The position numbers and the translations under genes were made by a program. Below are positions 29,330 to 49,521 of a stretch of 64,000 nucleotides of DNA, in pieces. The stretch spans positions 1,525 through 65,524 of the forward strand of contig CAYOJH010000006.1 of NCBI GenBank assembly GCA_964404275.1, written 5' to 3'. Within the stretch, counting starts at the first letter, position 1. Each line of letters opens with the position of its first letter. The notes beneath the pieces are model-generated. The model searched no databases. It was not told the origin of the DNA and worked only from the letters and a program-made list of their open reading frames with translations. This stretch comes from an uncultured Gammaproteobacteria bacterium. Its GTDB lineage: Bacteria; Patescibacteriota; Patescibacteriia; SG8-24; DYFX01.

Positions 29330-29430
29330 GAGCCAGCCTTGGCGGAAAAAGGCCGTTTTTCATGACAATCCCAGCTGGACGGGCTATACTCCCAGCGTTC
29401 GATTCATTTTTGTCATCATCTTCACCACGC

Positions 29431-32400
29431 ATGCCCACCACGAAACGACCCGCGATCCTGGTTTTCGCCTTTCTCGCCTGCGCCCTGCTCGTCTCGCACT
29501 CGCGACCCGTCTCCGCGCTCTCGACCGGAACCCTCATTAAAGGAAGCGGATCGTCCGTGTACTTCTACGCCACCGACGGCAAGCGGCATATTTTTCCGAC
29601 GGAAAAAATCTACGACAGCTGGTATTCCGGTTTCACGGGCATCATCACCCTCTCCGACGCCGATCTGGCCGCCATCCAGCTCGGCGCGAACGTCACCTAT
29701 CATCCCGGCACGCGCATGGTGAAGATCCAGACCGATCCGAAGGTCTACGCCGTCTCCAAGGGAGGCGTGCTGCACTGGATCGCGAGCGAGAGCGTCGCCA
29801 GCGCGCTTTACGGCCCGAGTTGGAATACGATGATCGATGACATTCCCGACGCCTTCTTCTTCAACTATCCGGTGGGCAATCCGATCAACAGCGCGTCGGA
29901 TTTCGATCTGAACGCGGCCAAGAGCGTTTCATCCATTAACGACGATTTCTCGCCAGCGCCGTCCGCCACGACCACGTCGACGTCCACCGCGCCTGCGACG
30001 ACGACCACGACGACTTCGACCTCCACTGCACCCTCGACCACCACGACCACTACGGCCAACTTGATCAGCGATCCGGGCTTTGAATCCGGAACCGCCGGTT
30101 TTTACGCCCAGGAAACGACGGACGCGGCGGTCCGCACGACGACGGCGCCGATCACCGGCGCGGCCAGTTTGGAAGTGACGATCAAGAGCTGGGGCAATAA
30201 TGCCTGGTGGACCTATCACGCCTCGGGCACGCCGAACGGCAAAGCTTCGAAGCTGACCGTGACCGGCAAGCTGCGCGGCGACACGGTGCGCGGCGACACG
30301 ACGTTTGAATTCTGCGCGGCGGTCTATTACGCCGACGGCGGAGACGTCGTCCAGAAATGCGCCGAGGCCAGCAAGATCCAGAGCCAAACGACCGTCTTGG
30401 TCGCTTCGATTGATTTGGACGCGACCCGCGCGCTCGGCGACGTCGACATCCGCATGACCACGAACGGTCCCGGACCGGTCGCCTACGCGCTCGACGGCGT
30501 TTCGGCCGTGCTGACCCTGCCCGCCGGATCGACGACCTCGACGCCGACCACGACCACGACGACAACTCCGCCCTCCACGACGACGCCTCCGCCCACGACC
30601 ACGACGACCAATCCAGGTACCGCCGGTTATACCGCCATGCTGACGACCTCGGGCAGCACCTCCGCGCTGCCGGTCATCGCCGACGCGCAGGACCCGTCCG
30701 AACCGAACATGACGCCGGCCTTTCACGTCTCGGTGCCGACCGCGCAGTGCAATCGTATGCTCGGTTTCGTGAACCCGGCCATCGCCATCCCGACGACCTC
30801 CAAGATCCGCGAAGTCGAAGCGACCTGGAACGGAACGCCCCTTTCGCTGATCGATCCTTCCGGCGCGGAGGTCGCGGAAGACGCGCACGCTTGGGGCTCG
30901 ATGGTCGGCTTCTTCAAGCCGCTCTTCTCCCTGTCTTCGATCCCGGCCGGCAGCGGCACGCTCGCCGTCAAAGCGTTTGATGGCGGCCACAACCTGATGA
31001 CGACCGTCTCGCTTCCGAACCTGACGATCGCGACGCCGCCGGCGCCACTCACCGCCGCCCAGATCGCCGCGCAAAGTCATCCGCGCATCTACCTCACGCC
31101 TTCGCGCTTGGCGCAGATCAAGGCCAAGCCGTCGACGGATCCGACCGTCCAGCGCTTCTGGAGCAAAACCGGCGGCGTCGGCTATTTCCTGCAGTACTAC
31201 ACGACCGGCACCGATCCCGAGAGCTCCAGCTTCCAGAATCAAGTCTACAATCCGGAAGATTACATTCCCGCGCTCGCGCTCTGCTATCAGCTCGACAAGA
31301 CCTCCGATCCGACGACGGCCGCCAAGTGCGCCGACGCCGGAAAGAAGCTGACGCTTGCGATCGCGAACGGCTACAATTCCGGCGCGCGCTCGTATTCAAA
31401 TGACGACGGATACGACATCCGCTTCCAGCTGCGCGACATGATGCTCGCGTACGACTGGATGTACGATGAATTCAGCGCCAGCGACCGCTCCGCCATTGCC
31501 AAAGCCGGCACGGGCTTCGTCGATTGGTTCACGGCTTCCGGCTACGCGAACAAAACTCCGATCGAGAACTACTACGCGGGCTATCTTCAGGGCATCACGC
31601 TGACCGCCGTCGCGACCGCCGGCGACAACGCCGAGGCCGACCGCTTGCTGACGCTTCTCCGCAACAAGCTGACCAACGAAGTGCCGGTCATGAACCAGCG
31701 CCTGTGCGGCGGCGACTTCCCGGAGGGTTGGAACTACGGACCGTACACGATGCTCGAGCTCTCGCTCGTCAATCAGACGCTGAAAGATGCCGGCGAAGAC
31801 TGGAGCGCGGACTTCGACTTCATCCAATCGCTCGCGCGCAGCTTTACCTACCAGGTCACGCCGGACATGGCGATGACGGTGCCGTTCGGCGACTATTCCG
31901 GCGACTTGCCGCACAAGACGACGGCCTCCTTGCTCGCCGTCCTGAGCTCGACGACCTCCGACGGCCCGCTGGCGACGCGCCTCTACAACGCGATGGTCGG
32001 CAATCCGGCCAGCGACGTGACGCAGGATCGCGGCGGCACCTTCTACGAAATGATCTTCGGCAACACGACGCAGTCCGCGAGCCTTTCCGGAATGCCGCTC
32101 TCGTACCTGAACGCCGGCACGGGTCGCTTCTTCTCCAAATCGTCGCTGACCGACACGTCCGGCTATGAAGTCACGGCCGACAACGTCAGCTACTACCACG
32201 ACCATTACGGCTACGCGAACGGCGACGTCCAGCTCTGGCACGGCTCGACCTGCCTCCTGTGCTCCTCGGCCTACCGCGGCCCGAGCTTCATCGGCCTCGG
32301 CACGACCAAGGACTTCTCGACCTACATGATCAATGGCAAAGACGCGTCGGTGAACCGCAACAACCAGATGCTGTTCGACATCGATCAAGGCGCCTACTCC

Positions 32401-32889
32401 GCGCTCGGCATGCGCTTCGAATCGTCGTTCCCGACGAGTCGTTACGACGAAGGCATGATGGATCCGGCCATGCCGCTCGACTACCTGATCCGCGAAGTCG
32501 TGCACGTGCGCCCCGGCGTCCTGGTCGTGCGCGACCTGCATCGCCGCCGCCATTCGACGGACACGCTCGTCGCCAACTGGCATCTTGGCCCGACCGGCAC
32601 CGTTCAGACGATCGCGCCCGGCCAATACAAGGTCGGCAACGTGAACGTGGAAACGTTCGCGCCGACCGGCACCACGAGCGTCTTCAGCACGGACGTCGAC
32701 GCGAAGGGGAATGCGATTGGCACCTTGATGCGGCAGACCTTCCCGAACAATACGAACCAGATGGAAACGGTGACCGTCATCTCGGACGTCGCGAGCGCCT
32801 CGAGCTACGTGAACGGCACGGTCAAGCTCTCGACCGGCCAGTGCGTGAACTTCGCGAACGGCGGAGTCAGCGTCGCGAGCTGCCAGTAA
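29431..32889 (+). CDS. large secreted protein (1152 aa) with Thr/Ser-rich linkers; C-terminal half possibly polysaccharide lyase/heparinase II/III-like
   Basis: Signal peptide MPTTKRPAILVFAFLACALLVSHSRPVSA (ATG 29431; ORF track extends upstream); T/S-rich linkers (TTSTSTAPATTTTTTSTSTAPSTTTTT); N-terminal ~110-aa domain shared with surface protein 33896..36697; lyase assignment is inference only. Confidence 0.55.
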   Translation: MPTTKRPAILVFAFLACALLVSHSRPVSALSTGTLIKGSGSSVYFYATDGKRHIFPTEKIYDSWYSGFTGIITLSDADLAAIQLGANVTYHPGTRMVKIQTDPKVYAVSKGGVLHWIASESVASALYGPSWNTMIDDIPDAFFFNYPVGNPINSASDFDLNAAKSVSSINDDFSPAPSATTTSTSTAPATTTTTTSTSTAPSTTTTTTANLISDPGFESGTAGFYAQETTDAAVRTTTAPITGAASLEVTIKSWGNNAWWTYHASGTPNGKASKLTVTGKLRGDTVRGDTTFEFCAAVYYADGGDVVQKCAEASKIQSQTTVLVASIDLDATRALGDVDIRMTTNGPGPVAYALDGVSAVLTLPAGSTTSTPTTTTTTTPPSTTTPPPTTTTTNPGTAGYTAMLTTSGSTSALPVIADAQDPSEPNMTPAFHVSVPTAQCNRMLGFVNPAIAIPTTSKIREVEATWNGTPLSLIDPSGAEVAEDAHAWGSMVGFFKPLFSLSSIPAGSGTLAVKAFDGGHNLMTTVSLPNLTIATPPAPLTAAQIAAQSHPRIYLTPSRLAQIKAKPSTDPTVQRFWSKTGGVGYFLQYYTTGTDPESSSFQNQVYNPEDYIPALALCYQLDKTSDPTTAAKCADAGKKLTLAIANGYNSGARSYSNDDGYDIRFQLRDMMLAYDWMYDEFSASDRSAIAKAGTGFVDWFTASGYANKTPIENYYAGYLQGITLTAVATAGDNAEADRLLTLLRNKLTNEVPVMNQRLCGGDFPEGWNYGPYTMLELSLVNQTLKDAGEDWSADFDFIQSLARSFTYQVTPDMAMTVPFGDYSGDLPHKTTASLLAVLSSTTSDGPLATRLYNAMVGNPASDVTQDRGGTFYEMIFGNTTQSASLSGMPLSYLNAGTGRFFSKSSLTDTSGYEVTADNVSYYHDHYGYANGDVQLWHGSTCLLCSSAYRGPSFIGLGTTKDFSTYMINGKDASVNRNNQMLFDIDQGAYSALGMRFESSFPTSRYDEGMMDPAMPLDYLIREVVHVRPGVLVVRDLHRRRHSTDTLVANWHLGPTGTVQTIAPGQYKVGNVNVETFAPTGTTSVFSTDVDAKGNAIGTLMRQTFPNNTNQMETVTVISDVASASSYVNGTVKLSTGQCVNFANGGVSVASCQ

Positions 32890-33895: not shown

Positions 33896-36697
33896 CTATT
33901 TCGCCAAATACTGATTCAGCGCTTCGATTGTTGATGCGCTCATGGCGCCGACGGGAGCGAGGCCTTGTTTCAGTTCGAAGGCTTTGAGGGCGCTTTGCGT
34001 GATCGGGCCGAAGAAGCCGGTCGGAGCAATGGTTTTCGGAAAGTCGCCGAGGCATTGCAGGAGCTTTTGGATCGCCGTGATTTGCGCGACGACCTTTCCC
34101 GAAGCGGGAGAGCTGATGAACGTGGCGTCGGTCGTGCAGGCCAGGCCGGACGGCGCGAGGACCGAAACGTCTTCCGCGGCGGTGATCGGTTCGCCGATCA
34201 CGTAGCCGTTTTTCAAGAGCGTGTCCGAGACATCGGAGATCATGCGCGTCCAGTTGCTGCCGTAAAGCGCGCGAGCGACCGTTTCGTCGGCGATCCAGCG
34301 CAGCACGCCGCCTTTGGCGACGGCATAGACTTTCGGATCCGATTGAATCTTCAGCAAGCGGCTACCCGGCCGGTAGGTGACGTTGCTGCCGAGGGGAATG
34401 GCGGCGATCGCGCTGGCGCTCACGATCTGCACGCCGGAAAAATCTTTATACCAGCTGGCGTAGGTTCCGGCATTCGGGAACGGATACCGGCGTCCGTCCG
34501 CGCCGCAGAAGAAGATGACGGAATCCGATTGCGTAGACGGGTCACCGTCATCCGCCAGCTTCATACGCGCGTCGGCAGCGCACATGATCGGCACGCTGGA
34601 GGACGGCGCTTCCAAATTCTTGTCGGCGTTGATCGTGGACGCGGAAGCGAGCGCATCGGCGGCGCGATAAGGAACGAACCCCGTATCAGGCAAGCGCGGG
34701 ACGACGTCGGCCACGACCACGATGGCGATCGCGTAGTCTTTGACGGCCAGTCCGTTGGCTTCTCCGCTGGCCACGGCCGTATTCGCCGTGGTTTTGATGA
34801 TGTTCGTGCGGCAGGTGTGCGTCCACGTTTCGTTCGTATCAAGCCGACCGTCGCCATTCGTGTCGCCCGAGACGTACTGCATCGGACTGCAGGTATCGTC
34901 TGTTAGATGGATGTTGCTGAGCGGCACCGCGCCCGGGTTGGTGATTTTTTCCGTGTACGTGACCGCGCCCCCTCCGGAGGTCAGCGTCAACGGACTCGGA
35001 ATTTTGGTCACGTGGATCAGAGGCGGCACGACAACGCCCGTATTCGGCAAGCCCGGCGCGCCGACCACGACGGTTGCCGTCGCGATGTCCGAAGCGATCA
35101 GACCGTTGGCCCAACCGGTCGCGACAACCGTGTTGGTGTGGGTTTGCGAAAGCGTGGTCGCGCAGCGATAGACCCATGTTTCGTCCACGTCGAGCTTGGC
35201 GTCGGCATTGGTGTCGCCGGAGAGCAGCGTGATGGGGCTGCACGAGTCGCCGACCATCGCGATGTTCGTCACCGGTACCGTGCCGATGTTGCGCAGCGTG
35301 TAGGTATAGCTGACCGGACCTGGGCCGCCCGGCAGCGCCAGGGGACTCGGCACTTTCACGACATCGATCAGCGGCGGCACGGGCGGGACGAGAATCGGCG
35401 CGCCGATGTCGTCATTGATGAGAATGCAGAACTTCACGTCGCCGGGATTGAGATTCAGTCGGCCGGTGGCGTCGCAATCGCCGGAGAACGTATGCTTGTA
35501 GTTTGCGGCATTGGTTTCCGTTACCGCGTAGACGCCGGCCGGCGCGGGGAAATCATTGCTGATCCCGGAGGCGACCGGAATGCCGTTCACGAAGAGGGGA
35601 AAATCGCTGTATGCCTTGTTGTCGCCGTTATCGTTGATGACGGTTTTTACGACCGTGATCGTGCCCGTGTGCACGCCTCCGCCTGTTGGCGCGGGACCGA
35701 CGGGCGGCGTCAGGCCCTGCACGGTGAAGGCCATCGCGTTGGACGCGCCGCCGCCCGGAGCCGGAGTCACGACGGTCACGGGCAGCGTCGCGGCGGTCGC
35801 GAGATCCGAAGAGGGGATCAAAGCGGTCAATTGCGTCGAGGATGCGTACGTCGTGACGCGATTCGAACCGTTCCATTGCACGACCGAAGCCGGAAAGAAG
35901 TTCGCGCCGTTCACGGTGATCGTGAAACCGGCATCCGTCGTGAGTTTTGTCGCGGGACTGATCGTCGTGACCGTCGGGACGGTATACGGTAATTCAAAGT
36001 CGTACGTCGTCACGGCATTGCTTACGCCGATGCTGAAAGCGTCGACGCTTCCCACGAAGCCGCTCGTCCAGCCGCCGCCGGCTTTGAATTGGACCGTGCC
36101 CGTGTTCGCCCCGGCGGAACGGACGCCGGCGTTCGGAAAATCAGCCAGCACTTCCGACCAGGTGCACGGATTGCCGATCGTGCATTTCGCGTTTCCCGGC
36201 GCGCCGGTGAACCACCAGTTGCCCGTGCCGGCGTTGTCGAGGGGATCCCAGGTCTGCCATGTTCCGGTCGAAACGGCGTGCGTATAGTACGGTTCGTAGA
36301 CGAGCCGCCCCTGCCAGGCGGTGTTGGTGTCGGTGACATTGGTGTCGATGTCGAATTGGAGCGAAGGCGCGAGCGCGCCGCTGCCGGACGTCCGATATGT
36401 GCCGTAGGCGAGAGAGGTGATGGCATCAAGCCGCGTGCCGACGTACGCGAACGTCCCGAAGATTTCTCCGCCGGTGCTGTTGACCGTGAGTTGCGCGCTG
36501 CCGCCGCCGAGCGGAGGCGCGGACGGACCGTACGTGAAGGTGCCGGAACCCGTCGGCGTTTCTTGGAAAAAAAACCAGCCGTTCATATCGGCCGGAGTGA
36601 CGACCACCGGAGACGCCGCTTTCGCGGGTCGCGCGGCACCCGCCAAGGCCAAAGCGATTCCGATCAGGCCCAGAAAAAGATTGAAATTTTTCTTCAC
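33896..36697 (-). CDS. large secreted surface protein with Cna-B-like and DUF11-like repeat domains and C-terminal peptidoglycan-binding (PG_binding_1-like) domain
   Basis: GTG start overlapping sortase stop (GTGA); signal peptide; TITVVKTVINDNGDNK...GVYAVTETNAANY (Cna-B type); two ~110-aa Cys-containing repeats; C-terminal GFFGPITQSALKAFELKQGLAPVGAMSASTIEAL resembles PG_binding_1; no C-terminal sorting signal. Confidence 0.7.
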   Translation of the reverse strand: MKKNFNLFLGLIGIALALAGAARPAKAASPVVVTPADMNGWFFFQETPTGSGTFTYGPSAPPLGGGSAQLTVNSTGGEIFGTFAYVGTRLDAITSLAYGTYRTSGSGALAPSLQFDIDTNVTDTNTAWQGRLVYEPYYTHAVSTGTWQTWDPLDNAGTGNWWFTGAPGNAKCTIGNPCTWSEVLADFPNAGVRSAGANTGTVQFKAGGGWTSGFVGSVDAFSIGVSNAVTTYDFELPYTVPTVTTISPATKLTTDAGFTITVNGANFFPASVVQWNGSNRVTTYASSTQLTALIPSSDLATAATLPVTVVTPAPGGGASNAMAFTVQGLTPPVGPAPTGGGVHTGTITVVKTVINDNGDNKAYSDFPLFVNGIPVASGISNDFPAPAGVYAVTETNAANYKHTFSGDCDATGRLNLNPGDVKFCILINDDIGAPILVPPVPPLIDVVKVPSPLALPGGPGPVSYTYTLRNIGTVPVTNIAMVGDSCSPITLLSGDTNADAKLDVDETWVYRCATTLSQTHTNTVVATGWANGLIASDIATATVVVGAPGLPNTGVVVPPLIHVTKIPSPLTLTSGGGAVTYTEKITNPGAVPLSNIHLTDDTCSPMQYVSGDTNGDGRLDTNETWTHTCRTNIIKTTANTAVASGEANGLAVKDYAIAIVVVADVVPRLPDTGFVPYRAADALASASTINADKNLEAPSSSVPIMCAADARMKLADDGDPSTQSDSVIFFCGADGRRYPFPNAGTYASWYKDFSGVQIVSASAIAAIPLGSNVTYRPGSRLLKIQSDPKVYAVAKGGVLRWIADETVARALYGSNWTRMISDVSDTLLKNGYVIGEPITAAEDVSVLAPSGLACTTDATFISSPASGKVVAQITAIQKLLQCLGDFPKTIAPTGFFGPITQSALKAFELKQGLAPVGAMSASTIEALNQYLAK

Positions 36698-37356
36698 AAG
36701 TTTGAATAGTATTCGTCTTTTCGATCGGCAAAAACCACGAGCCGTTTGTTGTACTGTTTAGCGCGTTTGTCCCATACGCCGACGACGCAGGTCACGAGAT
36801 TGAGATGCGATCCTCCATCGCTGGAACCGAAGACGTCGGTCGTATCCGCGCCCGCGTCGTATTGCCGGATATCGCGCACCACGAAGGTCGTGACGACACC
36901 CTTGTCGTCCTGGACCAGGATCGTATCGCCGGGTTTCGTTTTTTTCAGATTCGCGAAGGCCGCGGTCGCTCCGTAGAGCCAATTCACGTGTCCGGCGATG
37001 ACCGCGCTGCCCGTCTCTCCCGGACGAGGTCCTAACGCGTACCAAGCGGCATCTTTGGGACGCCGAGGCACGTTCATGGAACCGTCTGCCGCCAACGCGA
37101 CCTGCTCGACAGCCGCGTTCAAGGAGACGCGCGGGATTTTGATTCGTACGGGAATGCCGAAGCTCTTCTTGACCGAGACGGCTTTCGGGACCTGAACCAC
37201 AGCGAGCATGGTCGATCCGTCGCTGGCCTCAACGGCATTCACCAACGCGTCGCGCATGAGGACGCTTTGCCAGAAAAACGCGGCGATGCCGACCGCCAAG
37301 GCCAAGAATGCGCCCAGCACGCCCTTGTGTATGTGCCCCCTGTTCTTTTTATGCAT
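36694..37356 (-). CDS. sortase (class E/F-like transpeptidase)
   Basis: N-terminal TM anchor; catalytic His (AVIAGHVNW), TLxTC Cys (LNLVTCVVG) and Arg (RLVVFADR). Confidence 0.8.
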   Translation of the reverse strand: MHKKNRGHIHKGVLGAFLALAVGIAAFFWQSVLMRDALVNAVEASDGSTMLAVVQVPKAVSVKKSFGIPVRIKIPRVSLNAAVEQVALAADGSMNVPRRPKDAAWYALGPRPGETGSAVIAGHVNWLYGATAAFANLKKTKPGDTILVQDDKGVVTTFVVRDIRQYDAGADTTDVFGSSDGGSHLNLVTCVVGVWDKRAKQYNKRLVVFADRKDEYYSNL

Positions 37357-37365
37357 ACGCCTTAT

Positions 37366-37401
37366 GAAGAAGAGCCGCGCGCCCGCGCCCGGCTCTTCTT
37401 C
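37366..37401. promoter_or_regulatory. intergenic stem-loop immediately upstream of sortase RBS (possible attenuator/terminator)
   Basis: gaagaagagccg-cgcgcccgcgcc-cggctcttcttc perfect 12-bp stem; lies between surface-protein gene stop (37413) and sortase start (37356). Confidence 0.4.
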
Positions 37402-37412
37402 AAGAATGCATT

Positions 37413-39074
37413 TTAACGGCCGCGCGAAGCGATCCTTTTTTTCTTCCGGCGAGGCGCAATCAGGTGCATGGCGTAGAGGAGCACGGCGACGAAGGCGCCG
37501 GCCGCGACAAGACTCCAGGTCAGGATGCGGCTCGCAAGGGCGACCGTCGATGTCGCCGAAGCCGTGACGACAGGCAGCGTCCGCGCAGCCGCGATCGGCA
37601 AGGCGGGAACCGGCGTGGCTACCACGACGGTTGCGACGGCGAAGTCTCGTACGGTGAAACCGTTGGCGCTGCCGATGACGACGGCCGTATTCGTCGTGGT
37701 CTTGGAGAGTTTTGCCTTGCAGGTATAGATCCAGGCTTCGGACGGATCAAGTTCTCCGTCCCCGTTCTTGTCGCCGGAGATGCGCTTTAAAGGAGCGCAC
37801 TTGTCGTCCGTAATGCGGACATGGCTGAGCGCAACCTTTCCCGGGTTCGTGATTCTTTCCGTGTACGTGACGTCGCCTCCTCCGGCGGGCAAGGTCAGCG
37901 GGCTCGGAATTTTCGTGACATGGATCAAGGGGGGCGCCGCGATGCCGGCATTCGGCAGCTCCGGAGCGCTGACCACGACCGTCGCGCTTGCGAGGTCGAT
38001 CGCGCTCAGACCGTTGGCCCAACCGGTCGCGACGACCGTGTTGGTGTGGGTTTGCGAGAGCGTGGTCGTGCAGCGATACACCCACGTTTCGTCCACGTCG
38101 AGCTTGGCGTCGGCGTTGGCATCGCCGGAGATGAGCGTGATAGGACTGCAGGAATCGCCGATCATCGTGATATTCGTGACCGGTACCGTGCCGATATTGC
38201 GGAGCGTGTACGTGTACTCGACCGGACCGGGACCGTGCGTTAAGGCCAAGGGATTCGGCACTTTGACGACGTCGATCAAGGGAGGTACCGGAGGAATGAC
38301 GACGGGCGGTGGGGGAGGAGGCTCGGGAGGGATCACGATGGGCGGCGGCGCGGGCACGAAGATATCGTCATTCGTGACGATGCAGACGCGGTTGTCGCCG
38401 GGGTTCAGGTTCAGCTGGCCATTGATATCGCAGTCGCCAGAGAATGTCCGGATATACCCCGCATCGCCGGCTTCCGTTACGGTGAAGACATCGCCCGTGG
38501 CAAGGTAATCGTTCGTCACTCCAGATGCGACTCGGTTTCCGTTCACATAGAGCGGAAAGTCGGAGATGGTTCTGGCGCCGCCGTTGTCGTTGACGACGAT
38601 TTTAACGACGTTGATCGTCCCCATGCGCGACGTCCCTCCTCCGGATGAAGAGGGGCTTGCGGGAGTCGGAGCGGGCGGGACGGCGTTGACGCAGGGTCCG
38701 AAAGAGGTCCAGGTATCCGTCGCGCAAGAGTAACGCGTGCCGCAGAGCAGGATCGTGCCGGCCGTGTCGGCGTACAGCGAGATGTCATGTCCGGTCGTCG
38801 GTGCCCCGCAGTTGTCATTCCCGTTCGGGATGTTCGTTTGCGTGCCGTTCGGCTCCGCGCTCGCGATGAGTCCGGAATAGGTTGGCGCGTTACCGATGAG
38901 GTTATAAAACCAATAGGCATCCGCGCCCGTGTTCTTTCCGGTATACGAACACGTGTCAATGTATTGAACGTGGGTGGTGCAGGTGATTGAGGCGACGTCC
39001 GATGCCAGCGAGGGCGTCGCGCTCAAGAGCATGAGCGCGACGATCGAAATCCCCAGCCCTTTGGGGTAGTTCAT
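37413..39074 (-). CDS. cell-surface repeat protein (Cna-B-like + DUF11-like repeats) with non-canonical C-terminal sorting-signal-like tail
   Basis: Signal peptide MNYPKGLGISIVALMLLSA (ATG at 39074); Cys-rich N-domain, GTINVVKIVVNDNGGARTISDFPLYVNG Cna-B module, two DUF11-like repeats; C-terminus LPVVTAS...hydrophobic...PRRKKKRIASRGR. Confidence 0.65.
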   Translation of the reverse strand: MNYPKGLGISIVALMLLSATPSLASDVASITCTTHVQYIDTCSYTGKNTGADAYWFYNLIGNAPTYSGLIASAEPNGTQTNIPNGNDNCGAPTTGHDISLYADTAGTILLCGTRYSCATDTWTSFGPCVNAVPPAPTPASPSSSGGGTSRMGTINVVKIVVNDNGGARTISDFPLYVNGNRVASGVTNDYLATGDVFTVTEAGDAGYIRTFSGDCDINGQLNLNPGDNRVCIVTNDDIFVPAPPPIVIPPEPPPPPPVVIPPVPPLIDVVKVPNPLALTHGPGPVEYTYTLRNIGTVPVTNITMIGDSCSPITLISGDANADAKLDVDETWVYRCTTTLSQTHTNTVVATGWANGLSAIDLASATVVVSAPELPNAGIAAPPLIHVTKIPSPLTLPAGGGDVTYTERITNPGKVALSHVRITDDKCAPLKRISGDKNGDGELDPSEAWIYTCKAKLSKTTTNTAVVIGSANGFTVRDFAVATVVVATPVPALPIAAARTLPVVTASATSTVALASRILTWSLVAAGAFVAVLLYAMHLIAPRRKKKRIASRGR

Positions 39075-39076
39075 AG

Positions 39077-40891
39077 TCAGGAGGTTTTGCGTCCTGACTT
39101 TTTCCGAAGGCTGTGGAGGAGGAGCGTGGCGGCAAGCAAGCCGGCCGCGACGATGCTCCACGCGGGAACGCCTTCAGCGGGTCCTGCGCCCGTGTTCGGC
39201 AATTTCGGAGCGGCGGCGGCCACGACAACCGTGGCAATCGCGAAGTCGCGCACGGTCATGCCGTTCGCTTCGCCGGTGGCGATGGCGGTATTGGTCGTGG
39301 TCTTCGCCAGCATCGCTTGGCAGGTATAGGTCCACGTTTCGGAAGGATCAAGCTTGTTATCTCCGTTGGTATCGCCGGAGATACGCACCATCGGCGCGCA
39401 GGTGTCGTCGTTGAGCTGGACATTGCTAAGCGCGATCGTGCCGGGGTTGCTGACTTTTTCCGTGTAGGTGATCAGGCCGCCTTTCGCGCCCAAGGCCAGC
39501 GGGCTCGGAAGTTTCGTGACATGGATCAGCGGCGGCACGACAGGCGCGCCGACGACGACCGTTGCGCTGGCAAGATCGGTCGCGCTGATGCCGTTGGCCC
39601 AACCGGTCGCGACGACCGTGTTCGTATGGGTTTGCGTCAAGGTGGTCGTGCAGCTGTAGATCCACGTTTCGTTCACGTCAAGCTTCGCATCATGGTTGAG
39701 ATCGCCGGAGTTCAAGACAATGGGAATGCAGCTGTCGCCGACCATCGTGACGTCCGTGACGGGAACCGTGCCGACGTTACGAAGCGTGTAGGTGTACGTC
39801 ACCGATCCGGGACCGTTCGGCAGGGCCAGCGGACTCGGGACCTTGACGACGTCGATCAGCGGCGGCACGGGCGGAGTGACGACGGGTGCGCCGATGTCGT
39901 TATTCGTGATGATGCAGAAGCGGATATCGCCCGGATTGAGGTTCAAGCGGCCGTCGGCGTCGCAATCGCCAGAAAAAGATTGCGTGTAGCGCGGATCGCT
40001 CGTTTCCGTCACGGCATAGACGCCGGCCGGGGCGGGGAAGTCATACGTGGCGCCGGAAGAGACGGAGATCCCGTTCACGAACAACGGGAAGTCCGCGATG
40101 GTCTTAGTGCCGCCGTTATCATTGATAACTTTTTTGATGACGCCGATCGTACCCGAGTGGCTGCCGCCGGTTGAAACGGGCGTCACGGGAGCTGCGCAGG
40201 TCGGAACCGTGACGGTGTCGGTATTCGTCGTGACCGTGCCGCCAAAAGCCAAGGCTCGCCCTGTCCAGTTGGTGTTGGCGCCCACGGTGATGCCCGAGGC
40301 GTCGATGTCCGTACCGAAGAAGGTCGTATTGGCCGCGAGCGTCGTGGCCTGGGTCGGCGTCCAGAAGACGTCACACGCCGAAGCGCCGCTCAGCGTGACG
40401 ACGGCGCCGGCCGTCGATGTCAGTGCGCCCACGGGCCTGAAAATATAGGTTCCCGTGCCATTCAGCGTCAAAGGACCACCGACATCCATTGCTCCGTTGC
40501 TGCAATAGACGCCAGGCGCATAGACGCCGATCGGACCATGGGTCGTATCCGTGGAAAGATCGATCGCGCCGGCCGCGAACGTGAAGGTGCAGGGCTGGGA
40601 AGCCAACGCCGTGGAGGCATTACCTTGATCGGTACCTGCCGTCGAGTACGGAGCGCCGGACCCATAATTCGCATGCGTGCCCAGGGGGGCAACGGCCGGA
40701 GGCGTTGTGAACCCGACGTCGCCATTGATCGTGGTCGTCGTCGTGTTCGTGTAGGTGCTCGCCAGAACACCGTAGCTTGCCGCCGCTCCCAGCGAAGGCG
40801 ACGTGGCCGCAAGCGCGGCGACGGGACCGAATAGGCTGAATAGTAAAGCCAGAGCTGCTACGCCGCTCCCAACCCTTCGAAAAGTTTTCAT
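39077..40891 (-). CDS. LPXTG-anchored cell-surface repeat protein (Cna-B-like + DUF11-like repeats)
   Basis: Signal peptide; repeat modules as above; C-terminal LPNTG + hydrophobic segment + RKKSGRKTS = canonical sortase sorting signal. Confidence 0.75.
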   Translation of the reverse strand: MKTFRRVGSGVAALALLFSLFGPVAALAATSPSLGAAASYGVLASTYTNTTTTTINGDVGFTTPPAVAPLGTHANYGSGAPYSTAGTDQGNASTALASQPCTFTFAAGAIDLSTDTTHGPIGVYAPGVYCSNGAMDVGGPLTLNGTGTYIFRPVGALTSTAGAVVTLSGASACDVFWTPTQATTLAANTTFFGTDIDASGITVGANTNWTGRALAFGGTVTTNTDTVTVPTCAAPVTPVSTGGSHSGTIGVIKKVINDNGGTKTIADFPLFVNGISVSSGATYDFPAPAGVYAVTETSDPRYTQSFSGDCDADGRLNLNPGDIRFCIITNNDIGAPVVTPPVPPLIDVVKVPSPLALPNGPGSVTYTYTLRNVGTVPVTDVTMVGDSCIPIVLNSGDLNHDAKLDVNETWIYSCTTTLTQTHTNTVVATGWANGISATDLASATVVVGAPVVPPLIHVTKLPSPLALGAKGGLITYTEKVSNPGTIALSNVQLNDDTCAPMVRISGDTNGDNKLDPSETWTYTCQAMLAKTTTNTAIATGEANGMTVRDFAIATVVVAAAAPKLPNTGAGPAEGVPAWSIVAAGLLAATLLLHSLRKKSGRKTS

Positions 40892-41040: not shown

Positions 41041-41520
41041 CTATTTTAGAGGCTTTGTCTCGCCGATTGCCTCATCGGCCGTATCCGCGTCAGCTTCCGC
41101 CTTCGTGCGATGGATGCGGCCGTCGATATGATTCGGCGGCGCGTAGACCGTATAGAGCTTGAGCGCTTCGGCGCCGGTGTTTTTGAAATTATGTTTCGTG
41201 CCCGCGGTCACGACGACGACATCGCCGGGGCCGATCGGGAACGGCTTGTCATTGAGGTATCCCGTGCCCGTTCCCGAAATGAAGAAGAGCGTCTGTTCAG
41301 TATACGTGTGCGTTTCTTCGCCGACCTCGCCGCCGGGCGGAATGCTCATGACCACCAACTGGCTATTCGGACCGGTGAAGACGACGCGGCGGAAATAGTC
41401 GTTTTCCTGCGCCTGCGCGAGAATGTTGCCGTGATAGCTCATGGGAATGTGGGTGGGAGAGCTCGCGCAGCCCGTGCCGAGAAGCAGGAGGCCGGCGAGA
41501 AGAATAAGAAGGCGTTTCAT
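41041..41520 (-). CDS. cupin domain lipoprotein
   Basis: Lipobox LLGTGCASS; cupin motifs (GEVGEETHTYTEQ...PGDVVVVTAGTKHNFKNTG). Confidence 0.6.
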   Translation of the reverse strand: MKRLLILLAGLLLLGTGCASSPTHIPMSYHGNILAQAQENDYFRRVVFTGPNSQLVVMSIPPGGEVGEETHTYTEQTLFFISGTGTGYLNDKPFPIGPGDVVVVTAGTKHNFKNTGAEALKLYTVYAPPNHIDGRIHRTKAEADADTADEAIGETKPLK

Positions 41521-43598
41521 TGTTTTGCGATCCGCCGGTGAAGAATCAAACCGCTGACAACGATGATGGCGAGGAGCAAAAGGGCCGTGATCAACCCGTC
41601 CAGAGGCGTGGCAAAGAGCTCCAAGATGATCAAGCGGACCTTCTGCGTGAATGGAGTTTTTTTCGAGGCGTCGGCCGAAGTCGTTTCAGACGTTGAGACC
41701 GTTGATGGATGAACGGCATCGGTCCCCGTACTCGGAAGTTTCGATTCCGGCATCAGCTTGGACTTTGTCGCAAGATTGAACACGCCGGTCGCCGGCAAGC
41801 CGACGTCTCTTTGATATCTGATGAGGGCGGCGCGCGTGAGCGTTCCGAAATAGCCTTTCGCGACGCGCAACGGCATGGTCAGGAACCCGTCGCGCTCGAG
41901 CGCGGTCTGGAGCGCCGCGACATCCGCGCCTCGCGCGCCCAGCTTGAGAGACTGATACAGGATCGGGGCAAGGATATCGGCGTTTTCCGGCACGGCGTCG
42001 GTGAAGACCACGCGCCGTTGCGGGTAGGTGCCGTTGACCTGGTTCCAAACCCCTTCGCAGGTAATGAGATTCAGGTGCGCGAGGCCGTCGTTCGACGTAA
42101 AGACGGTCGTGGCATCGGCGTTTCTGTCGAACAGGCTGATGGTTCGAACGACGAAGGCAAGCGTTTCGCCTTTATCGTTGACGACGTAGACGATATCGCC
42201 CGCTTTGAGCTTGTCGAGGTCGTAGAAGACGAACGGCACGCCCTTATTGATGCCGAAGTGTCCGCCGATCACGGCGCTGCCTTCCTGGCCGGGATGCGGG
42301 CCGAGCGCGAACCAGGCGACGTTTTCCGAACCCGCCGGGACGTCCATTCTTCCGTCGGGCGTGATCAGCGCGTCCTCGATCGCGGAATCGACGCCGATCG
42401 TCGGAATCTTGAGGCGGACGGGAAGTCCCTGCGGAATGCCGCCCGGATCGCGGATGCTGGAATAGGCGATTTGATTCGAAAGAGATCCCGTGATCGGAAA
42501 TTTCGCCACGGGAAATTTCCAACCGAAGGCGAGGTCAGATGAAACCTGGGGTTCTGCAATCTGATTGCGTCGGGGCGACAAGAAGAAGTACAATCCGCCG
42601 CCCAAGATGGCGGCGAGCACAATGATAGACAGCACTCTTAAGGAGCGTTTGAAGCTCTTTCGCGCTTTCCCGGTCTTGCGCTTCCGCGTGAGCAGCAACA
42701 GGAGAAGGAGGATCGCCAAGACCAAGGACATGATTCCCCACAGAACGATTTTCGACCCGGCGCCGAGTCCGGTCAGCGGAAATTTCGGGACATCCTGATT
42801 CGAAAAGCCGGGAACGAGGCTCCTGACCATGACGGTCAGAGCGAAGTCGTCCACCGCCCGCAAGCCGTTCGCGAACGCCGTCACGTGCACCGTGTTGGTC
42901 GTCGTCTGCTTCAAGTTCGCCGTGCACGTGTAGATCCAGACCTCGTTCGTGTCCAGGAGGCTGTTGCCGTTCGTGTCTCCTAATTTTCCCGACATCGCGC
43001 TGCACTTGTCATCGACGATGGTGACGTTGCTCAGCGGGACAGCGCCAGGGTTGTTGACTCTGTAGGTGAAGGTGATCGGACCGCCCTCGGCCGGCAGGGA
43101 AAGCGGATAGGCGACTTTGGTGACGTTGATGACGCTGACGAGCGGAGCGGGATTCGCGGAGCCGACGACGACGGTCGTATACGCCTTGTGCGTAGCGGTG
43201 ACGCCGTTGGCGCTGCCGGTGACCGTGGCCGTGCTTTGCGTCGTTGCGGAAAGCGTCGTCGTGCAGGTATAGCGCCAGGTTTCGCCGTACTCGAGTCTGC
43301 CATCCCCGTTATCGTCGCCGTCATGAAAGGCGACGGCGCCACAGGCGTCATCGACGACATGCACGTCCGTCAGCGCGATCTCCTGAAGAAAATTCTTCAC
43401 CGCGTAGTTGTACGTGACCTTGCCGCCCGCTTGAGGCAAGACCAACGGGTCGGGCACCGACGTGATGCCGATCAATGGCACGTATAAGACGCTGCCGCTT
43501 CCTTGCGCGCCGGCCGCAAACGCAGCGATCGGACCGATCAAAAGAGATACGAAAAAAAGAGCCGCAATGGCCCGTGAACCCGTTTTATTTGTATGCAT
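41517..43598 (-). CDS. fusion protein: surface repeat domains + sorting-signal-like TM segment + sortase catalytic domain + C-terminal PG_binding_1 domain
   Basis: ATG at 43598 (MHTNKTG) with signal peptide; two DUF11-like repeats; KFPLTG + hydrophobic + TRKRKTGKARK; second TM; sortase motifs (IGGHFG, LNLITCEG, RRVVFTD); C-terminal LKLGARGADVAALQTALERDGFL...GYFGTLTRAALIRYQRDVGL. Confidence 0.65.
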   Translation of the reverse strand: MHTNKTGSRAIAALFFVSLLIGPIAAFAAGAQGSGSVLYVPLIGITSVPDPLVLPQAGGKVTYNYAVKNFLQEIALTDVHVVDDACGAVAFHDGDDNGDGRLEYGETWRYTCTTTLSATTQSTATVTGSANGVTATHKAYTTVVVGSANPAPLVSVINVTKVAYPLSLPAEGGPITFTYRVNNPGAVPLSNVTIVDDKCSAMSGKLGDTNGNSLLDTNEVWIYTCTANLKQTTTNTVHVTAFANGLRAVDDFALTVMVRSLVPGFSNQDVPKFPLTGLGAGSKIVLWGIMSLVLAILLLLLLLTRKRKTGKARKSFKRSLRVLSIIVLAAILGGGLYFFLSPRRNQIAEPQVSSDLAFGWKFPVAKFPITGSLSNQIAYSSIRDPGGIPQGLPVRLKIPTIGVDSAIEDALITPDGRMDVPAGSENVAWFALGPHPGQEGSAVIGGHFGINKGVPFVFYDLDKLKAGDIVYVVNDKGETLAFVVRTISLFDRNADATTVFTSNDGLAHLNLITCEGVWNQVNGTYPQRRVVFTDAVPENADILAPILYQSLKLGARGADVAALQTALERDGFLTMPLRVAKGYFGTLTRAALIRYQRDVGLPATGVFNLATKSKLMPESKLPSTGTDAVHPSTVSTSETTSADASKKTPFTQKVRLIILELFATPLDGLITALLLLAIIVVSGLILHRRIAKQ

Positions 43599-43883: not shown

Positions 43884-45398
43884 TTACTGCGCCGATGAAA
43901 CAACCTCGTTAAGAACGCGCCAGATTGCGATCATGGCCTCGGTATCTCGACCGCAATACTTTTTAAGGTCGGCAGCGATTTTCGCTTTTACCTCGTCGGT
44001 CTGCCCTTCAAAAATCATCCGGTACCAAGCATCCATTGCCGCGCCACCATCCTGAATTTCCAGCTCTTTGTAAGTTAGCGTGGGTACTAACACGGGTAAT
44101 ACTTTCTTTATCGATGTTCTCCCCCGGAAATCCGGATGTACATGGAACTGCTTCTGAAAAATTTCCATCAAATCATAAATGCGAGCATTGATATCAGACA
44201 AGAATGAATCGTGCTGCGGATTTCTCTCCGCAAGCTGAGAGTTGATCTTCCTTTCAAAGGGCTTATACCACACGATAATGGTACCGCTTTCCCCAATAGT
44301 CCCCTGTAGCTTATCGATGATGGCCTCTGACGGGTCTGTTGCTTCCTCGTGCAAGTACTCGAAATGCTCAAAATCAGCATCCGGGCCACTCAGTCTATCC
44401 AAAGAAAATTGGAATGGTATCTGTTGATATGGCTTATAGCCCTTAAACAGCGGGATCGCTGGCGCGTAACTTTCATAGTCAAGAAAATACAACGGGAAGG
44501 CTAGCGAAGAAAGCTCACGTTCGATGGCATCCTTGTCGATGATTGCCTTTTGAGTCTTGTGGGCAATGGCCTGCATTTTCTGAATATCCGACAAAGAAAA
44601 CTCATCCGGCACATCCTTAATGTCGAAGATTCCGTCTTCAACTAAACTCTCCAACTTTTTCTTACTGATCCTCGATAAGTCATGCACCGAGTATTCAGGT
44701 ACCTGCGGATGGGAGTAGCAAAAAGTTGAGCACTGGGAATTCCTGCCGACATACAGGCATTCACAGGATAGGGCGCTCTCATCAAGTTGGGTCAGCGCCT
44801 CTCTCGCTCGATCCATTCGTGCTTTTACATCCTCCATCCTGTCAGCAACCTTTTCGGTCACATCCTCCATCTCGAAGAGCTCTGAAAGTGAGATTTCGTC
44901 ACCACGAACGTACTCTTTGTTCAGGTGAATGATTTTGATTTGCCCAATTTTTATACCCACTGATTGGAGAATGCGTGCCTGAAAGGATGCGTCATCGATA
45001 TGGTCCCGACCATCCTCCCCTTCGTTCAAAGAATTGGTCCCTTTGACCTCGTATAGATTCCAGCACCCGTGATCCTCATCGAACTCCAAAACGTCGTTAC
45101 GCGCCAAAAAACCGTCGTGAATGAAAGTCGCTTGGAAAAGCGCTTTGGAGCCATGACCCATCAACTCTTCCGTCCTCTTTGCGGCAGCCTCGCCCGACTC
45201 CTCGATTAAAATGCCTTCGGGAAAAAGCTTCCTCGCCCATTGTTCAACAAGGTTTCCTTTTGCCAACAGACCTCGCTCAAATTCTGAGAGGGAGAACATT
45301 GAGCTCAAGTCAGGCTTGTGCACCTTAAGCCACGCGTTCTTTCCGCACGCGCTATATTCGAGAAACAGGGTTTTTGTGAGGTATTTCATTTGATCCAT
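43884..45398 (-). CDS. Cas4/RecB-like PD-(D/E)xK nuclease with Fe-S Cys cluster and C-terminal domain of unknown function (DUF2779-like architecture)
   Basis: Probable start MDQMKYL at 45398; N-terminal Cys (YSACGK), D...EVK nuclease motif (ARNDVLEF...NLYEVKGT), CECLYVGRNSQCSTFC cluster (C-x-C-x9-C-x3-C); ~250-aa C-terminal region unassigned. Confidence 0.65.
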   Translation of the reverse strand: MDQMKYLTKTLFLEYSACGKNAWLKVHKPDLSSMFSLSEFERGLLAKGNLVEQWARKLFPEGILIEESGEAAAKRTEELMGHGSKALFQATFIHDGFLARNDVLEFDEDHGCWNLYEVKGTNSLNEGEDGRDHIDDASFQARILQSVGIKIGQIKIIHLNKEYVRGDEISLSELFEMEDVTEKVADRMEDVKARMDRAREALTQLDESALSCECLYVGRNSQCSTFCYSHPQVPEYSVHDLSRISKKKLESLVEDGIFDIKDVPDEFSLSDIQKMQAIAHKTQKAIIDKDAIERELSSLAFPLYFLDYESYAPAIPLFKGYKPYQQIPFQFSLDRLSGPDADFEHFEYLHEEATDPSEAIIDKLQGTIGESGTIIVWYKPFERKINSQLAERNPQHDSFLSDINARIYDLMEIFQKQFHVHPDFRGRTSIKKVLPVLVPTLTYKELEIQDGGAAMDAWYRMIFEGQTDEVKAKIAADLKKYCGRDTEAMIAIWRVLNEVVSSAQ

Positions 45399-45450
45399 GC
45401 TCGTACGATAGGGTTTTTGTGTATACTTAGTCAAAACACAGGCCCTACCG

Positions 45451-48400: not shown

Positions 48401-49149
48401 TATCCGGAAAGCTCTACAGGTCCGATGAGCAGCTCCGCTCTACGGTTTCGGGTAAATCCGGACATCGCCAAGAGTTTATAAAATGCGCGGTAACCAGTCA
48501 GCCCTTACTGAGGGAAGAAGCAGAGCAATGCGAAGTAACTGGCACGCTAGTTGCGCCCGGCATCCTCGAAGAGTGTTCGGTGACGAAGAAAAAGGTCTTG
48601 CCGAGCGAACTGGCGAAAAGCGAATTCAGCGGAAAAATGGCACTCCAAAAGTACTTCGTTTCTAGTTCAATTTCAGATGGCAAAATTCTTGAGTCCGAAG
48701 CCGTTCGATCTTCGAAGGGAAAATATTGCTCCCCCGCAGAAGTAAAACCGTGCGCATGGAGCGGTCTTAAATACCACCCTGATGATTTAGAGATATGTCA
48801 CCTGTCGGGTCTTTCAGTTCACTCCGTATACGTTACACCCGATGGCCCTCCAAGAATTACGTCACTGGCCCGACTCCTTGATGGAACGCTCAGAAAAGCT
48901 GATGGGACTGAATATTGGCAGAAAATCGTTGATGCTCTAGCTGGCTCGGTTGGCGGCGTTCTCAAGGTGGATGCGGCGGAGTTTTCTCCGGACGGCACGC
49001 TACTCGCGGTTTGCTTGGAATCAACGAAATGGTTGGTGAAGACTCGCTATTTGGGCCTCGTGTTTTCATTGCGACAAAACTCGGCTACGGGTCGAATCGT
49101 GTCTGGAAAGCGAAAGGATCATAGGTGGATTGACGACCTCGTAATTTAA
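45451..49149 (+). CDS. SNF2/Rad54-family (SF2) helicase, 1232 aa, with long C-terminal extension containing degenerate Cys/Ser-Gly-Lys tandem repeats
   Basis: Motif I DDVGLGKT, II ILDEAHKLRN, III LMLTATPIQNRLWDLYSLIDLL, helicase-C motifs YDLPWNPMVVEQRIGRIQRL; residues ~880-1125 form ~15 tandem ~15-aa repeats. Confidence 0.85.
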   Translation: MDNPAIPLKVKLLWKASKPADFDLYKAALEWSLVDPIIIENRDDLKSEYLWRDKIKPYHHQVTNLITFCRRLPVTLLADDVGLGKTISAGLIASELMTRDRVSKILIVCPKLLMNQWSEELEQKFGIASTTAIGKTLIKAKPPKDVGAVITTYTSAKLYLDDLEDAGYQMLILDEAHKLRNLYGVDPTPQVATRFRKALKDRLFRYVLMLTATPIQNRLWDLYSLIDLLTVARGHENPFGSEGIFARKFIDDDRTQARRLNLGAKDEFRSIIYQYMSRVRRGDAQLYFPERKVLLKSVAPTAEESELIGIIAEPIQELNRLGQISVLQALISSPDALAAQLRTMARNETIPAELATRVREVVKKMKTTAKMQGLGSLVEKLRKERPEDWRMVVFTTRRETQTTIQAFLEGQGIACGVINGDSGRRNQETINNFKCYPPQINVIISTEAGSEGVNLQAANVLVNYDLPWNPMVVEQRIGRIQRLASEHKTVSIFNIILKGTFEEYIVGRLMEKLQMASQAIGDVESLLQASGMEEGEGEITSFEEQIRRLVIESLAGKDVEEATRMAEKSIEHAEAELDREEKNIDSMLGGMGDVVGVDPYPPKLTPVNHSMGLREFVLGALEAQGEKVTAQPNGLYVSESHGQKELFRFDNEVADPETTSTLYAPGSPAFERLVNRCTSRGYHTVNDVDIEPLKKAMDIAGGWAKAFDGRFDSAAPLAVYRNFEGSAIIRVHATVAHDSYERLVESDCAIKMDHDLGKLGLEPLHASISDPHKVGLDTDCLIDKAFHDPDISEFCRFYGERLEQELKAVGDDERKRKKTVDDFTPRIAVELVGLNGNIHRRIKLNTKYRIDEGEYESSLTVIPNSEEVIEAPEIKKCEKTGRHAPADCFGICEISKLQVLRHLLVASDISDRQALPEHVIKCSYSGKKVLIDEAAKSDISGHFVTASLLLTSAISGKKGEPTYFGQCEFTSVTALKDELLTSEVSGKLYRSDEQLRSTVSGKSGHRQEFIKCAVTSQPLLREEAEQCEVTGTLVAPGILEECSVTKKKVLPSELAKSEFSGKMALQKYFVSSSISDGKILESEAVRSSKGKYCSPAEVKPCAWSGLKYHPDDLEICHLSGLSVHSVYVTPDGPPRITSLARLLDGTLRKADGTEYWQKIVDALAGSVGGVLKVDAAEFSPDGTLLAVCLESTKWLVKTRYLGLVFSLRQNSATGRIVSGKRKDHRWIDDLVI

Positions 49150-49195
49150 GTGAACGATCCTTGACGCGGGGTATGTAGGCGATAGGCTGGTCTGC

Positions 49196-49453: not shown

Positions 49454-49521
49454 TATCAATCGACCCGTAACAACCGATTTCGGGCTATAAAGGCACCCCC
49501 TTCCTAGGCGGGTGTGAAGAG

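Follow-up and report, generated by a model that had tools for sequence, protein, structure and literature searches.

How do surface proteins that share one stalk and are encoded around one sortase become attached to the cell when each of them ends differently? This question is raised by a group of genes on the minus strand (33896-40891) of the 64,000-nucleotide stretch of contig CAYOJH010000006.1 (assembly GCA_964404275.1) analyzed here, the whole of which we call the window. The genes encode three large proteins, g1, g2, and g4, whose N-termini are all signal-peptide-like by inspection, together with a stand-alone sortase, and we consider it likely that they form a sortase-served cluster for adhesin-type proteins of the cell surface in an uncultivated Patescibacteria (candidate phyla radiation, CPR) bacterium. 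At the level of sequence, the gene order, domains, catalytic residues, motifs, and conservation of the motifs can all be read directly. An earlier note, made from the letters alone, had described an operon running from 40891 to 33896 whose three proteins use different C-terminal solutions. Both points stand, in that the genes form a tight, codirectional sortase cluster and the proteins end in a canonical sorting signal (g1), a degenerate signal with a membrane segment (g2), and a peptidoglycan-binding domain (g4).

Gene Order and the Stand-Alone Sortase

A check of the open reading frames (ORFs) placed four tightly packed genes within 33896-40891 (-), namely g1 (39077-40891, 604 aa), g2 (37413-39074, 553 aa), the stand-alone sortase gene (36694-37356, 220 aa), and g4 (33896-36697, 933 aa). 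Only two bases lie between the stop codon of g1 and the ATG of g2 at 39074. As listed, the g2 ORF runs into g1, to 39161; ATG 39074 makes a plausible start and yields the same 553 aa as the NCBI protein (P0179). Between g2 and the sortase gene is a gap of 56 nt that holds a 13-bp GC-rich hairpin (37366-37401, -; -35.9 kcal/mol, z = -3.3), and in the extended stem (37351-37411, -) an AUGCAU element pairs with the sortase start codon region. Lacking a U tract, the hairpin is unlike a classical terminator, and its position over the start codon may keep sortase expression below that of the structural genes. The sortase TGA overlaps the GTG start of g4 within GTGA (context cttGTGA), just as the earlier note had it. 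That note drew the cluster too small, however. It extends upstream of 40891 to a second, substrate-fused sortase gene (g0, 41517-43598, -) and a cupin lipoprotein gene.

The stand-alone sortase matched PF04203 with an E value of 8.6e-22 (77.6 bits, cut-off 26.6), confirming that a sortase follows the second gene. Pfam and alignments resolved an N-terminal membrane segment (9-34) and a sortase domain (68-211) in which His123, Cys190 (LVTC), and Arg205 were invariant across a 16-sequence alignment, the His and Cys also aligning with those of solved sortases. All three catalytic residues, whose absence the earlier note had named as grounds for doubt, are therefore present. Among NCBIfam classes, class F (NF033748) scored best for both the stand-alone enzyme (115.2 bits) and the g0 domain (104.3 bits), in each case below the cut-off of 166, and the stand-alone sortase is for this reason given no class. 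The features of class C pilus sortases were not found, the DP[FWY] lid being absent and the class C score reaching 24 bits against a cut-off of 160. In actinobacterial class F sortases an Asn has been reported at the position of the catalytic Arg (PMC8703055); unlike those enzymes, the cluster's sortase keeps Arg.

A Shared Stalk of CnaA- and CnaB-Like Domains

A three-domain stalk, made of one SpaA_2-like domain (CnaB-like) followed by two CLIPPER_2 domains (CnaA-like), is common to g1, g2, and g4; the N-terminal heads of the three proteins differ. The ~110-aa Cys-containing repeat that had been recognized in all three is real. It spans ~105 aa and corresponds to Pfam family PF24346 (CLIPPER_2, formerly DUF7507), which is present in two copies in each protein and scored 46.9 bits in g1, 51.0 in g2, 37.6 in g4, and 42.3 in g0 against a cut-off of 27. 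Its earlier naming as "Cna-B/DUF11" was half right because each protein combines one CnaB-like with two CnaA-like domains. A CnaB-like, SpaA_2-type domain does stand, once, before the repeats, but the Cys repeat itself is CLIPPER_2, the sister of DUF11, and not CnaB. CLIPPER (DUF11) and CLIPPER_2 have been described as CnaA-like isopeptide-bond stalk domains of fibrillar adhesins, with a Lys/Asp/Asn triad listed for DUF7507, and both DUF7507 and SpaA_2 are included among the isopeptide domain families (Costa et al. 2025, PMC12617251).

Among 43 aligned proteins, the Lys (V[VT]K), Asp (xDxC), and Asn (T[HT]TNT) of CLIPPER_2 were at least 90% conserved in both repeats, sitting on the first, a middle, and the penultimate strand, respectively. 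Two Cys were invariant in the repeats of the window and of the 43 aligned homologues. Between these Cys every repeat carries GDTNGDGRLDTNETW, which fits the EF-hand loop consensus DxNxDGxLDxxE (for example aa 493-508 and 610-625 of g4). A CLIPPER_2 profile run against PDB sequences gave no significant match and did not retrieve 9IFR, the only matches being weak ones to EF-hand loops, by which the DxNxDGxLDxxE loop came to light. A loop of this kind bracketed by a Cys pair suggests a disulfide-stapled calcium site inside an Ig-like domain.

The ~90-aa domain upstream of the repeats, one per protein, scored 21-22 bits in the window copies against a gathering score of 25 for SpaA_2 (PF19403), while 20 of the 21 members of this CnaB-like domain family match SpaA_2 (best E 8.5e-11). 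In the 21-member alignment K9, E52, and N86 were at least 90% conserved and two Cys were invariant; the profile had no match in PDB. Both stalk triads, Lys/Glu/Asn in the SpaA_2-like domain and Lys/Asp/Asn in CLIPPER_2, are kept in the form used for intramolecular isopeptide bonds in these families. An AlphaFold2 (AF2) model of g4 residues 335-680 comprised three beta-sandwich domains with a mean predicted local distance difference test (pLDDT) score of 92.6. Foldseek matched this model to extracellular tandem Ig arrays, which are generic and so allow no specific assignment. The expectation that the repeats are of surface type, to be checked with Pfam, was thus upheld by an extracellular Ig-like stalk. 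The arrangement resembles the published CLIPPER/CLIPPER_2 fibrillar adhesins in having CLIPPER_2 above threshold, the Lys/Asp/Asn triad, a disulfide, and a stalk between head and sorting region. It differs from them in containing only two CLIPPER_2 and one SpaA_2, in the EF-hand-like loop between the Cys, and in the first copy of the g0 substrate, which is without the Lys and Asn (PMC12617251).

g1 and the Stalk Family of Patescibacteria

The first gene of the four, g1 (39077-40891, -), is the sole ORF of the window with a complete C-terminal sorting signal. Pfam, NCBIfam, and inspection divide its product into a signal peptide, an Ice_binding/DUF3494 head (aa 45-228) of the ice-binding-like beta-solenoid type, the SpaA_2-like CnaB domain (247-334), two CLIPPER_2 domains (343-447 and 453-556), LPNTG at 564-568 (39188-39202, -), a membrane segment (574-592), and an RKKSGRKTS tail. 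With the C-terminus APKLPNTGAGPAEGVPAWSIVAAGLLAATLLLHSLRKKSGRKTS, all three parts of an LPXTG signal, pentapeptide, hydrophobic stretch, and basic tail, are in place, and the canonical LPNTG signal claimed for this gene is confirmed. From established sortase biology, g1 would be exported by Sec, with the membrane segment and basic tail at its C-terminus retaining it. The sortase, itself anchored in the membrane, would then cleave LPNT|G through Cys190 and resolve the acyl-enzyme onto a peptidoglycan precursor, leaving g1 covalently anchored to the wall. The parallel is with the Gram-positive housekeeping SrtA and its MSCRAMM-type proteins (Cna), which likewise combine a membrane-anchored His/Cys/Arg sortase with substrates built from a signal peptide, head, Ig-like isopeptide stalk, LPXTG, hydrophobic segment, and basic tail. 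It ends with the host, a CPR bacterium, with a sortase that falls in no curated class, and with the paralogues g2 and g4, which deviate from the tripartite signal.

Homology searches and a scan of representative genomes found the stalk module in >1200 proteins at 55-70% identity, and g1 belongs to this family of >1200 Patescibacteria proteins. Named sources of the relatives were nearly always Patescibacteria lineages, with a few other or unspecific labels of metagenome-assembled genomes (MAGs). The related genome loci all derived from MAGs (80/80), most of them labeled Patescibacteria and a few carrying another or no taxon label, and the taxonomic placement of the cluster is based on such relatives. 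For comparison, 86 fetched loci and 246 proteins were annotated with hidden Markov models made from the window's own domains. Among 214 stalk proteins, 140 ended in [LF]PxTG plus a membrane segment, 20 in relaxed motifs (LPKAG, LPNAG), 3 in a membrane segment only, and 11 in PG_binding_1, and 30 were fused to a sortase. LPNTG was the commonest terminal motif, occurring in 85 of the 160 tails with a motif and membrane segment. Sortases are frequent in CPR bacteria (PMC6744442), and of the 89 stand-alone sortases at related loci 42 lay immediately downstream of a stalk substrate, 23 of these substrates having an ice-binding head. A g1-like substrate with its sortase is therefore a common cassette of the group. 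Members of the family are usually annotated just as "ice-binding family protein"; they probably constitute a major sortase-displayed adhesin class of Patescibacteria.

A Degenerate Signal in g2

The product of g2 (37413-39074, -) consists of a signal peptide, a small Cys-rich head (~25-150) that had no family match in Pfam or NCBIfam, a SpaA_2-like domain (152-239), a Pro-rich spacer, two CLIPPER_2 domains (264-368 and 381-484), and a degenerate signal with a membrane segment (517-541). Its C-terminus reads ALPIAAARTLPVVTAS, then the membrane segment, then RRKKKRIASRGR. The tail had previously been given as LPVVTAS, a membrane segment, and KKKR, which describes it correctly, but LPVVTAS is not the homologue of the sorting motif. 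In the paralogue alignment the columns directly after repeat 2 hold PKLPNTGAGP in g1, PALPIAAART in g2, and PRLPDTGFVP in g4, making LPIAA (37587-37601, -), seven residues upstream of LPVVTAS, the positional homologue of LPNTG and LPDTG. The tripartite signal of g2 is thus incomplete in its pentapeptide, though the hydrophobic segment and basic tail are present, and an insertion after LPIAA puts the membrane segment behind a longer spacer of 20 aa. An origin of this tail in a frameshift artefact was rejected, neither alternative frame encoding an LPXTG.

From its sequence, LPIAA is best taken as a decayed sorting motif. It was seen once, in g2, among the 160 scored family tails, where the Gly of position 5 is almost always kept, and the few comparable cases, P0103 with LPKSA and P0071 without any motif, seem to have decayed independently. 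These same observations make it unlikely that LPIAA or LPVVT is a genuine noncanonical motif read by one of the two sortases. That reading would account for the intact hydrophobic segment and strong basic tail, could draw on the change from T to A at motif position 4 in ~14 family tails (LPKAG, LPNAG, LPVAG), and has two sortases at hand. With decay as the preferred explanation, g2, having lost Thr-Gly and gained a longer spacer, would most likely remain a C-terminally membrane-anchored surface protein.

A Wall-Binding C-Terminus in g4

The product of g4 (33896-36697, -) has no membrane segment. Behind its signal peptide come a head that we call G4N (29-236), to which Pfam and NCBIfam assigned no domain, and a choice-of-anchor Z Ig-like domain (240-326; NF058597, 103.1 bits, NCBIfam cut-off 30). 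These are followed by the SpaA_2-like domain (345-432), two CLIPPER_2 domains (441-545 and 558-661), a ~50-aa linker, a module designated WBD (721-850), and PG_binding_1 (872-927). The last of these (33917-34084, -) matched PF01471 at E 4e-8 (33.8 bits vs 23), and Foldseek placed its predicted structure, of the three-helix PG-binding fold, with the SleB N-domain 6tci (target-normalized TM-score 0.86, root-mean-square deviation 1.5), with further matches to 1lbu, 4lpq, and phage endolysin PG-binding domains. A C-terminal PG-binding domain in place of a sorting-signal end, as read from the letters, is hence supported by both profile and fold. Directly after the second CLIPPER_2, at the ancestral position of the sorting signal, g4 nevertheless carries LPDTG (aa 669; 34679-34693, -). 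Some 260 soluble residues (linker, WBD, and PG_binding_1) follow it with no membrane segment, so the tripartite signal is not complete.

WBD (34148-34537, -), a module of ~125 aa without annotation, has no Pfam or NCBIfam model. Foldseek against the PDB gave no confident match, the EccB-like matches at E >= 0.014 being leads only. Among 1.84 billion representative proteins, 4214 clusters contained it at E <= 1e-3. It lies almost always at the extreme C-terminus or right behind the signal peptide, often beside PG_binding_1, and in the members sampled it is accompanied by fn3, Ig-like, Ice_binding, and PG_binding_1 domains. A second copy with 49% identity occupies the N-terminus (29500-29967, +) of a neighboring 1188-aa protein. 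That protein (29323-32889, +) is secreted and has Thr/Pro-rich linkers and, beyond its N-terminal WBD, no Pfam or NCBIfam match over the other ~1000 residues.

The preferred explanation is that g4 would be held noncovalently through its terminal WBD and PG_binding_1, with LPDTG marking the place of the ancestral sorting signal. In having a PG_binding_1 end with the expected fold and no membrane segment, g4 resembles known noncovalent wall binders (PG_binding_1, LysM, SH3b). What sets it apart from them is where the module sits, on the stalk of a sortase substrate and right behind an LPDTG that is intact.

The intact motif is what gives weight to a serious rival, in which LPXTG with a soluble wall-binding domain behind it (PG_binding_1 or SH3-like) serves as an alternative sorting signal, the domain taking over retention from the membrane segment and basic tail. 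A g0-type sortase would cut there, link the stalk covalently to the wall, and free the binding domain, so that g4 itself would be covalently attached. In 14 relatives a wall-binding domain comes directly after the last CLIPPER_2 repeat (PG_binding_1; SH3-like in two), and in 13 of the 14 the canonical position still holds an intact [LF]PxTG. P0091 and P0076, for instance, have LPNTG or FPTTG and then an SH3-like domain in place of the membrane segment. The retained motifs vary (LPNTG, LPDTG, FPNTG, FPDTG, FPETG, FPRTG, FPTTG), as do their flanks, and at least three PG_binding_1 sequence subtypes plus the SH3-like domain are involved. This variety suggests that such fusions arose independently several times, the motif surviving in each, and it argues for selection on the motif. 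In addition, g4-type proteins share a cluster with a PG_binding_1 sortase in the window and at seven related loci (L003, L010, L013, L017, L044, L087, and L088), and pLDDT in the g4 model drops to ~57-65 over the tail with LPDTG.

Within the subfamily that joins WBD to PG_binding_1, by contrast, the motif is kept in one of five members, g4 only, and lost in the other four. P0072, the only relative with both the G4N and choice-of-anchor Z heads of g4, has lost it too. Every known sortase pathway, moreover, needs membrane retention of the substrate. It was on account of the subfamily and of P0072 that noncovalent retention was preferred. We regard wall-templated sorting of g4 as a tentative alternative, with somewhat less than an even chance, and cutting of the g4 LPDTG by a sortase as about as probable or slightly more so. 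Noncovalent retention of g4 alongside covalent anchoring of g1 gives the mixed attachment that the earlier note proposed, a picture that is plausible and that we infer entirely.

A Second Sortase Fused to its Own Substrate

Upstream of g1, g0 (41517-43598, -) encodes 693 aa in which a substrate and a sortase are joined. The first half contains a signal peptide, two CLIPPER_2 domains, FPLTG (273-277), a membrane segment, an RKRK loop, and a second membrane segment. Behind it lie FPITG (367-371), a sortase domain (388-534), and PG_binding_1 (556-615), and the protein closes with LPSTG (621-625), a ~35-aa spacer, a last membrane segment, and a basic tail. The sortase domain scored 67.6 bits against PF04203 (cut-off 26.6), and its His447, Cys514, and Arg528 were invariant in an alignment of homologues. 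Twenty-three aligned homologues, at 51-63% identity, share this architecture. Many relatives instead have two adjacent genes in its place, often with a 4-nt overlap, for an LPXTG substrate of ~305-335 aa and a sortase of ~365-385 aa; others are fused. Since relatives often encode the halves separately, g0 is understood as an in-frame fusion of a small CLIPPER_2 substrate with a dedicated sortase. It supplies a second, PG_binding_1-bearing sortase translated together with its own small substrate.

Among the fetched loci, 21 of 27 PG_binding_1 sortases were fused to such a substrate or lay directly downstream of one. They are also bracketed by sorting pentapeptides. An [FL]PxTG precedes the catalytic domain by ~15 aa in 45 of 57, compared with 7 of 94 sortases without PG_binding_1, and takes the conserved juxtamembrane form FGWKFPVAKFPxTG (45/57; the g0 site is 42486-42500, -). 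On the other side, an LPxT[GA] stands between PG_binding_1 and a membrane segment ~35 aa further on in 50 of 57 (g0 site 41724-41738, -); an LPxT[GA] at this end occurs in 11 of 94 sortases without the domain. That these pentapeptides act as a pseudo-substrate lid or as a self-processing site are speculations on our part.

Taken with LPXTG kept ahead of a peptidoglycan-binding domain that stands in for the membrane anchor, the motif-bracketed sortase could be seen as part of a membrane-independent, wall-templated sortase branch in Patescibacteria. We hold such a branch to be doubtful; under it the g0 sortase, forming one polypeptide with its own substrate, would have to cut that substrate off itself.

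As a side observation on the substrate half, the first CLIPPER_2 of g0-type substrates (43161-43484, -) is without the isopeptide Lys and Asn (ITSVP, TTQST) in 23/23 homologues, and contains an invariant Lys in YAVKNF.

Another reading is that the cluster builds a sortase-polymerized pilus, in which one sortase would join the LPXTG Thr of one stalk protein to a Lys of the next, with g1 or g4 as tip adhesins and the small g0 substrate as shaft. In its favor, the cluster unites two sortases with several proteins that have CnaA/CnaB-type isopeptide domains, much like the pilus islands of Gram-positive bacteria, and the first CLIPPER_2 of the small g0 substrate has the YAVKNF Lys in the absence of the isopeptide Lys and Asn. 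Yet the pilin motif and E-box are absent from g0, g1, g2, and g4, the only YPK being in the signal-peptide region of g2, and the class C lid is missing. Both sortases score best against class F rather than class C (NCBIfam), and large heads such as those of g1 and g4 are what monomeric fibrillar adhesins typically carry. SpaA-type pili assembled by class C sortases are similar in their CnaA/CnaB-type domains and in having several sortases and LPXTG proteins per locus, and differ in the pilin motif, E-box, and lid, and in polymerization, of which the cluster gives no sign. The CPR "Pam" pilus of a recent preprint is a different, donor-strand-exchange system. A pilus is accordingly very unlikely. 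Of the "pilus or adhesin array" first suggested for the locus, it is the adhesin array that fits.

Internal LPXTG-Like Motifs

Pentapeptides away from the C-termini, already remarked on in the earlier note, are present as LPNAG in g2 and as LPNTG and LPDTG in g4, but they lie in linkers after the repeats and not inside the repeats. LPNAG (aa 373; 37944-37958, -) sits in the linker between the two CLIPPER_2 domains of g2, and LPNTG (aa 550; 35036-35050, -) in the inter-repeat linker of g4; relative to g1, both stretches are 7-residue insertions. The two LPxTG of g4 compare with 0.057 expected (5000 shuffles, P = 0.0016) and are not due to chance.

Programmed cleavage at the internal LPN[TA]G would be one reason for their presence, a cut between the CLIPPER_2 domains yielding a shorter anchored product and a Gly-starting fragment that might act as nucleophile for head-to-tail ligation. 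The PGLPNTG insertion does recur at the same linker in ~16 relatives, and g2 pairs its internal LPNAG with a dead terminal motif. In the AF2 model of g4, moreover, the 10-residue block with the first half of the internal LPNTG has a mean pLDDT of 75, compared with 93-98 in the flanking domain blocks. These ~16 relatives, out of ~250 unique proteins, make up only 6-7% of the family, however, and the internal motif shows no relation to loss of the terminal one, which is kept in 13 of 16 proteins with and 181 of 221 without an internal motif. Tandem duplicated terminal motifs (LPNTGIPGLPNTG) made of PGLPNTG units in P0108 and P0230 point instead to slippage or recombination between repeat ends. 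We therefore find programmed cleavage improbable, more so than a functional LPIAA in g2. Compensation for a dead terminal motif was rejected, terminal motifs being retained equally with and without an internal one. Their independence of the terminal state and the tandem PGLPNTG duplications fit recombination between homologous repeat ends, and the internal LPN[TA]G would then be copies of the PGLPNTG repeat end, moved into the inter-repeat linker by intragenic recombination.

Weighing the Modes of Attachment

Several points weigh against a covalently anchored g1, a membrane-anchored g2, and a noncovalently held g4. With a class F score of 115 against 166 bits, the sortase belongs to no curated class, and its motif preference follows only from the neighboring substrates. 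Relaxed LPxAG tails in ~14 family members mean that the enzyme could tolerate the internal LPNAG of g2 or even LPIAA. The motif kept in 13 of the 14 relatives with a directly following wall-binding domain means that it may still be used, and that g4 is perhaps not purely noncovalent. All the functions discussed, cleavage, anchoring, isopeptide bonds, calcium binding, and adhesion, are ones that we infer.

Relation to Known Systems

A sortase serving LPXTG adhesins with isopeptide stalks is a well-known kind of system, and if the core of our reading alone is true, what is unusual is the host, and the cluster of sortase and substrates itself is ordinary. In the open-access literature we found no paper on this cassette, CPR papers mentioning sortases in passing only, and no description of LPXTG before a wall-binding domain, of a motif-bracketed PG_binding_1 sortase, or of a substrate-sortase fusion. 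These three variants bear on what a sortase requires to find its substrate, and they supply concrete peptides and domains that could be tested in vitro. Members of CPR/Patescibacteria are believed to spend their lives attached to other cells, and their surface proteins are almost uncharacterized.

Neighboring Genes

Between g0 and g1 is a gene (41041-41520, -) for a Cupin_2 protein that carries a lipoprotein-type signal (LGTGC). A 4-nt overlap (ATGA) between the start of this gene and the stop of g0 couples the two translationally. A Cupin_2 gene also lies behind the g0 homologue at one related locus (L006). On the far side of g0, ~43884-51400 forms a low-GC island with 47-55% GC in 2-kb bins, compared with ~58-66% in the other bins. 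Its genes encode a DUF2779 protein, a 1232-aa SNF2/ResIII helicase, and a large serine recombinase, and it ends at a tRNA-Glu (51303-51377). The island probably represents a mobile element that integrated right beside the cluster.

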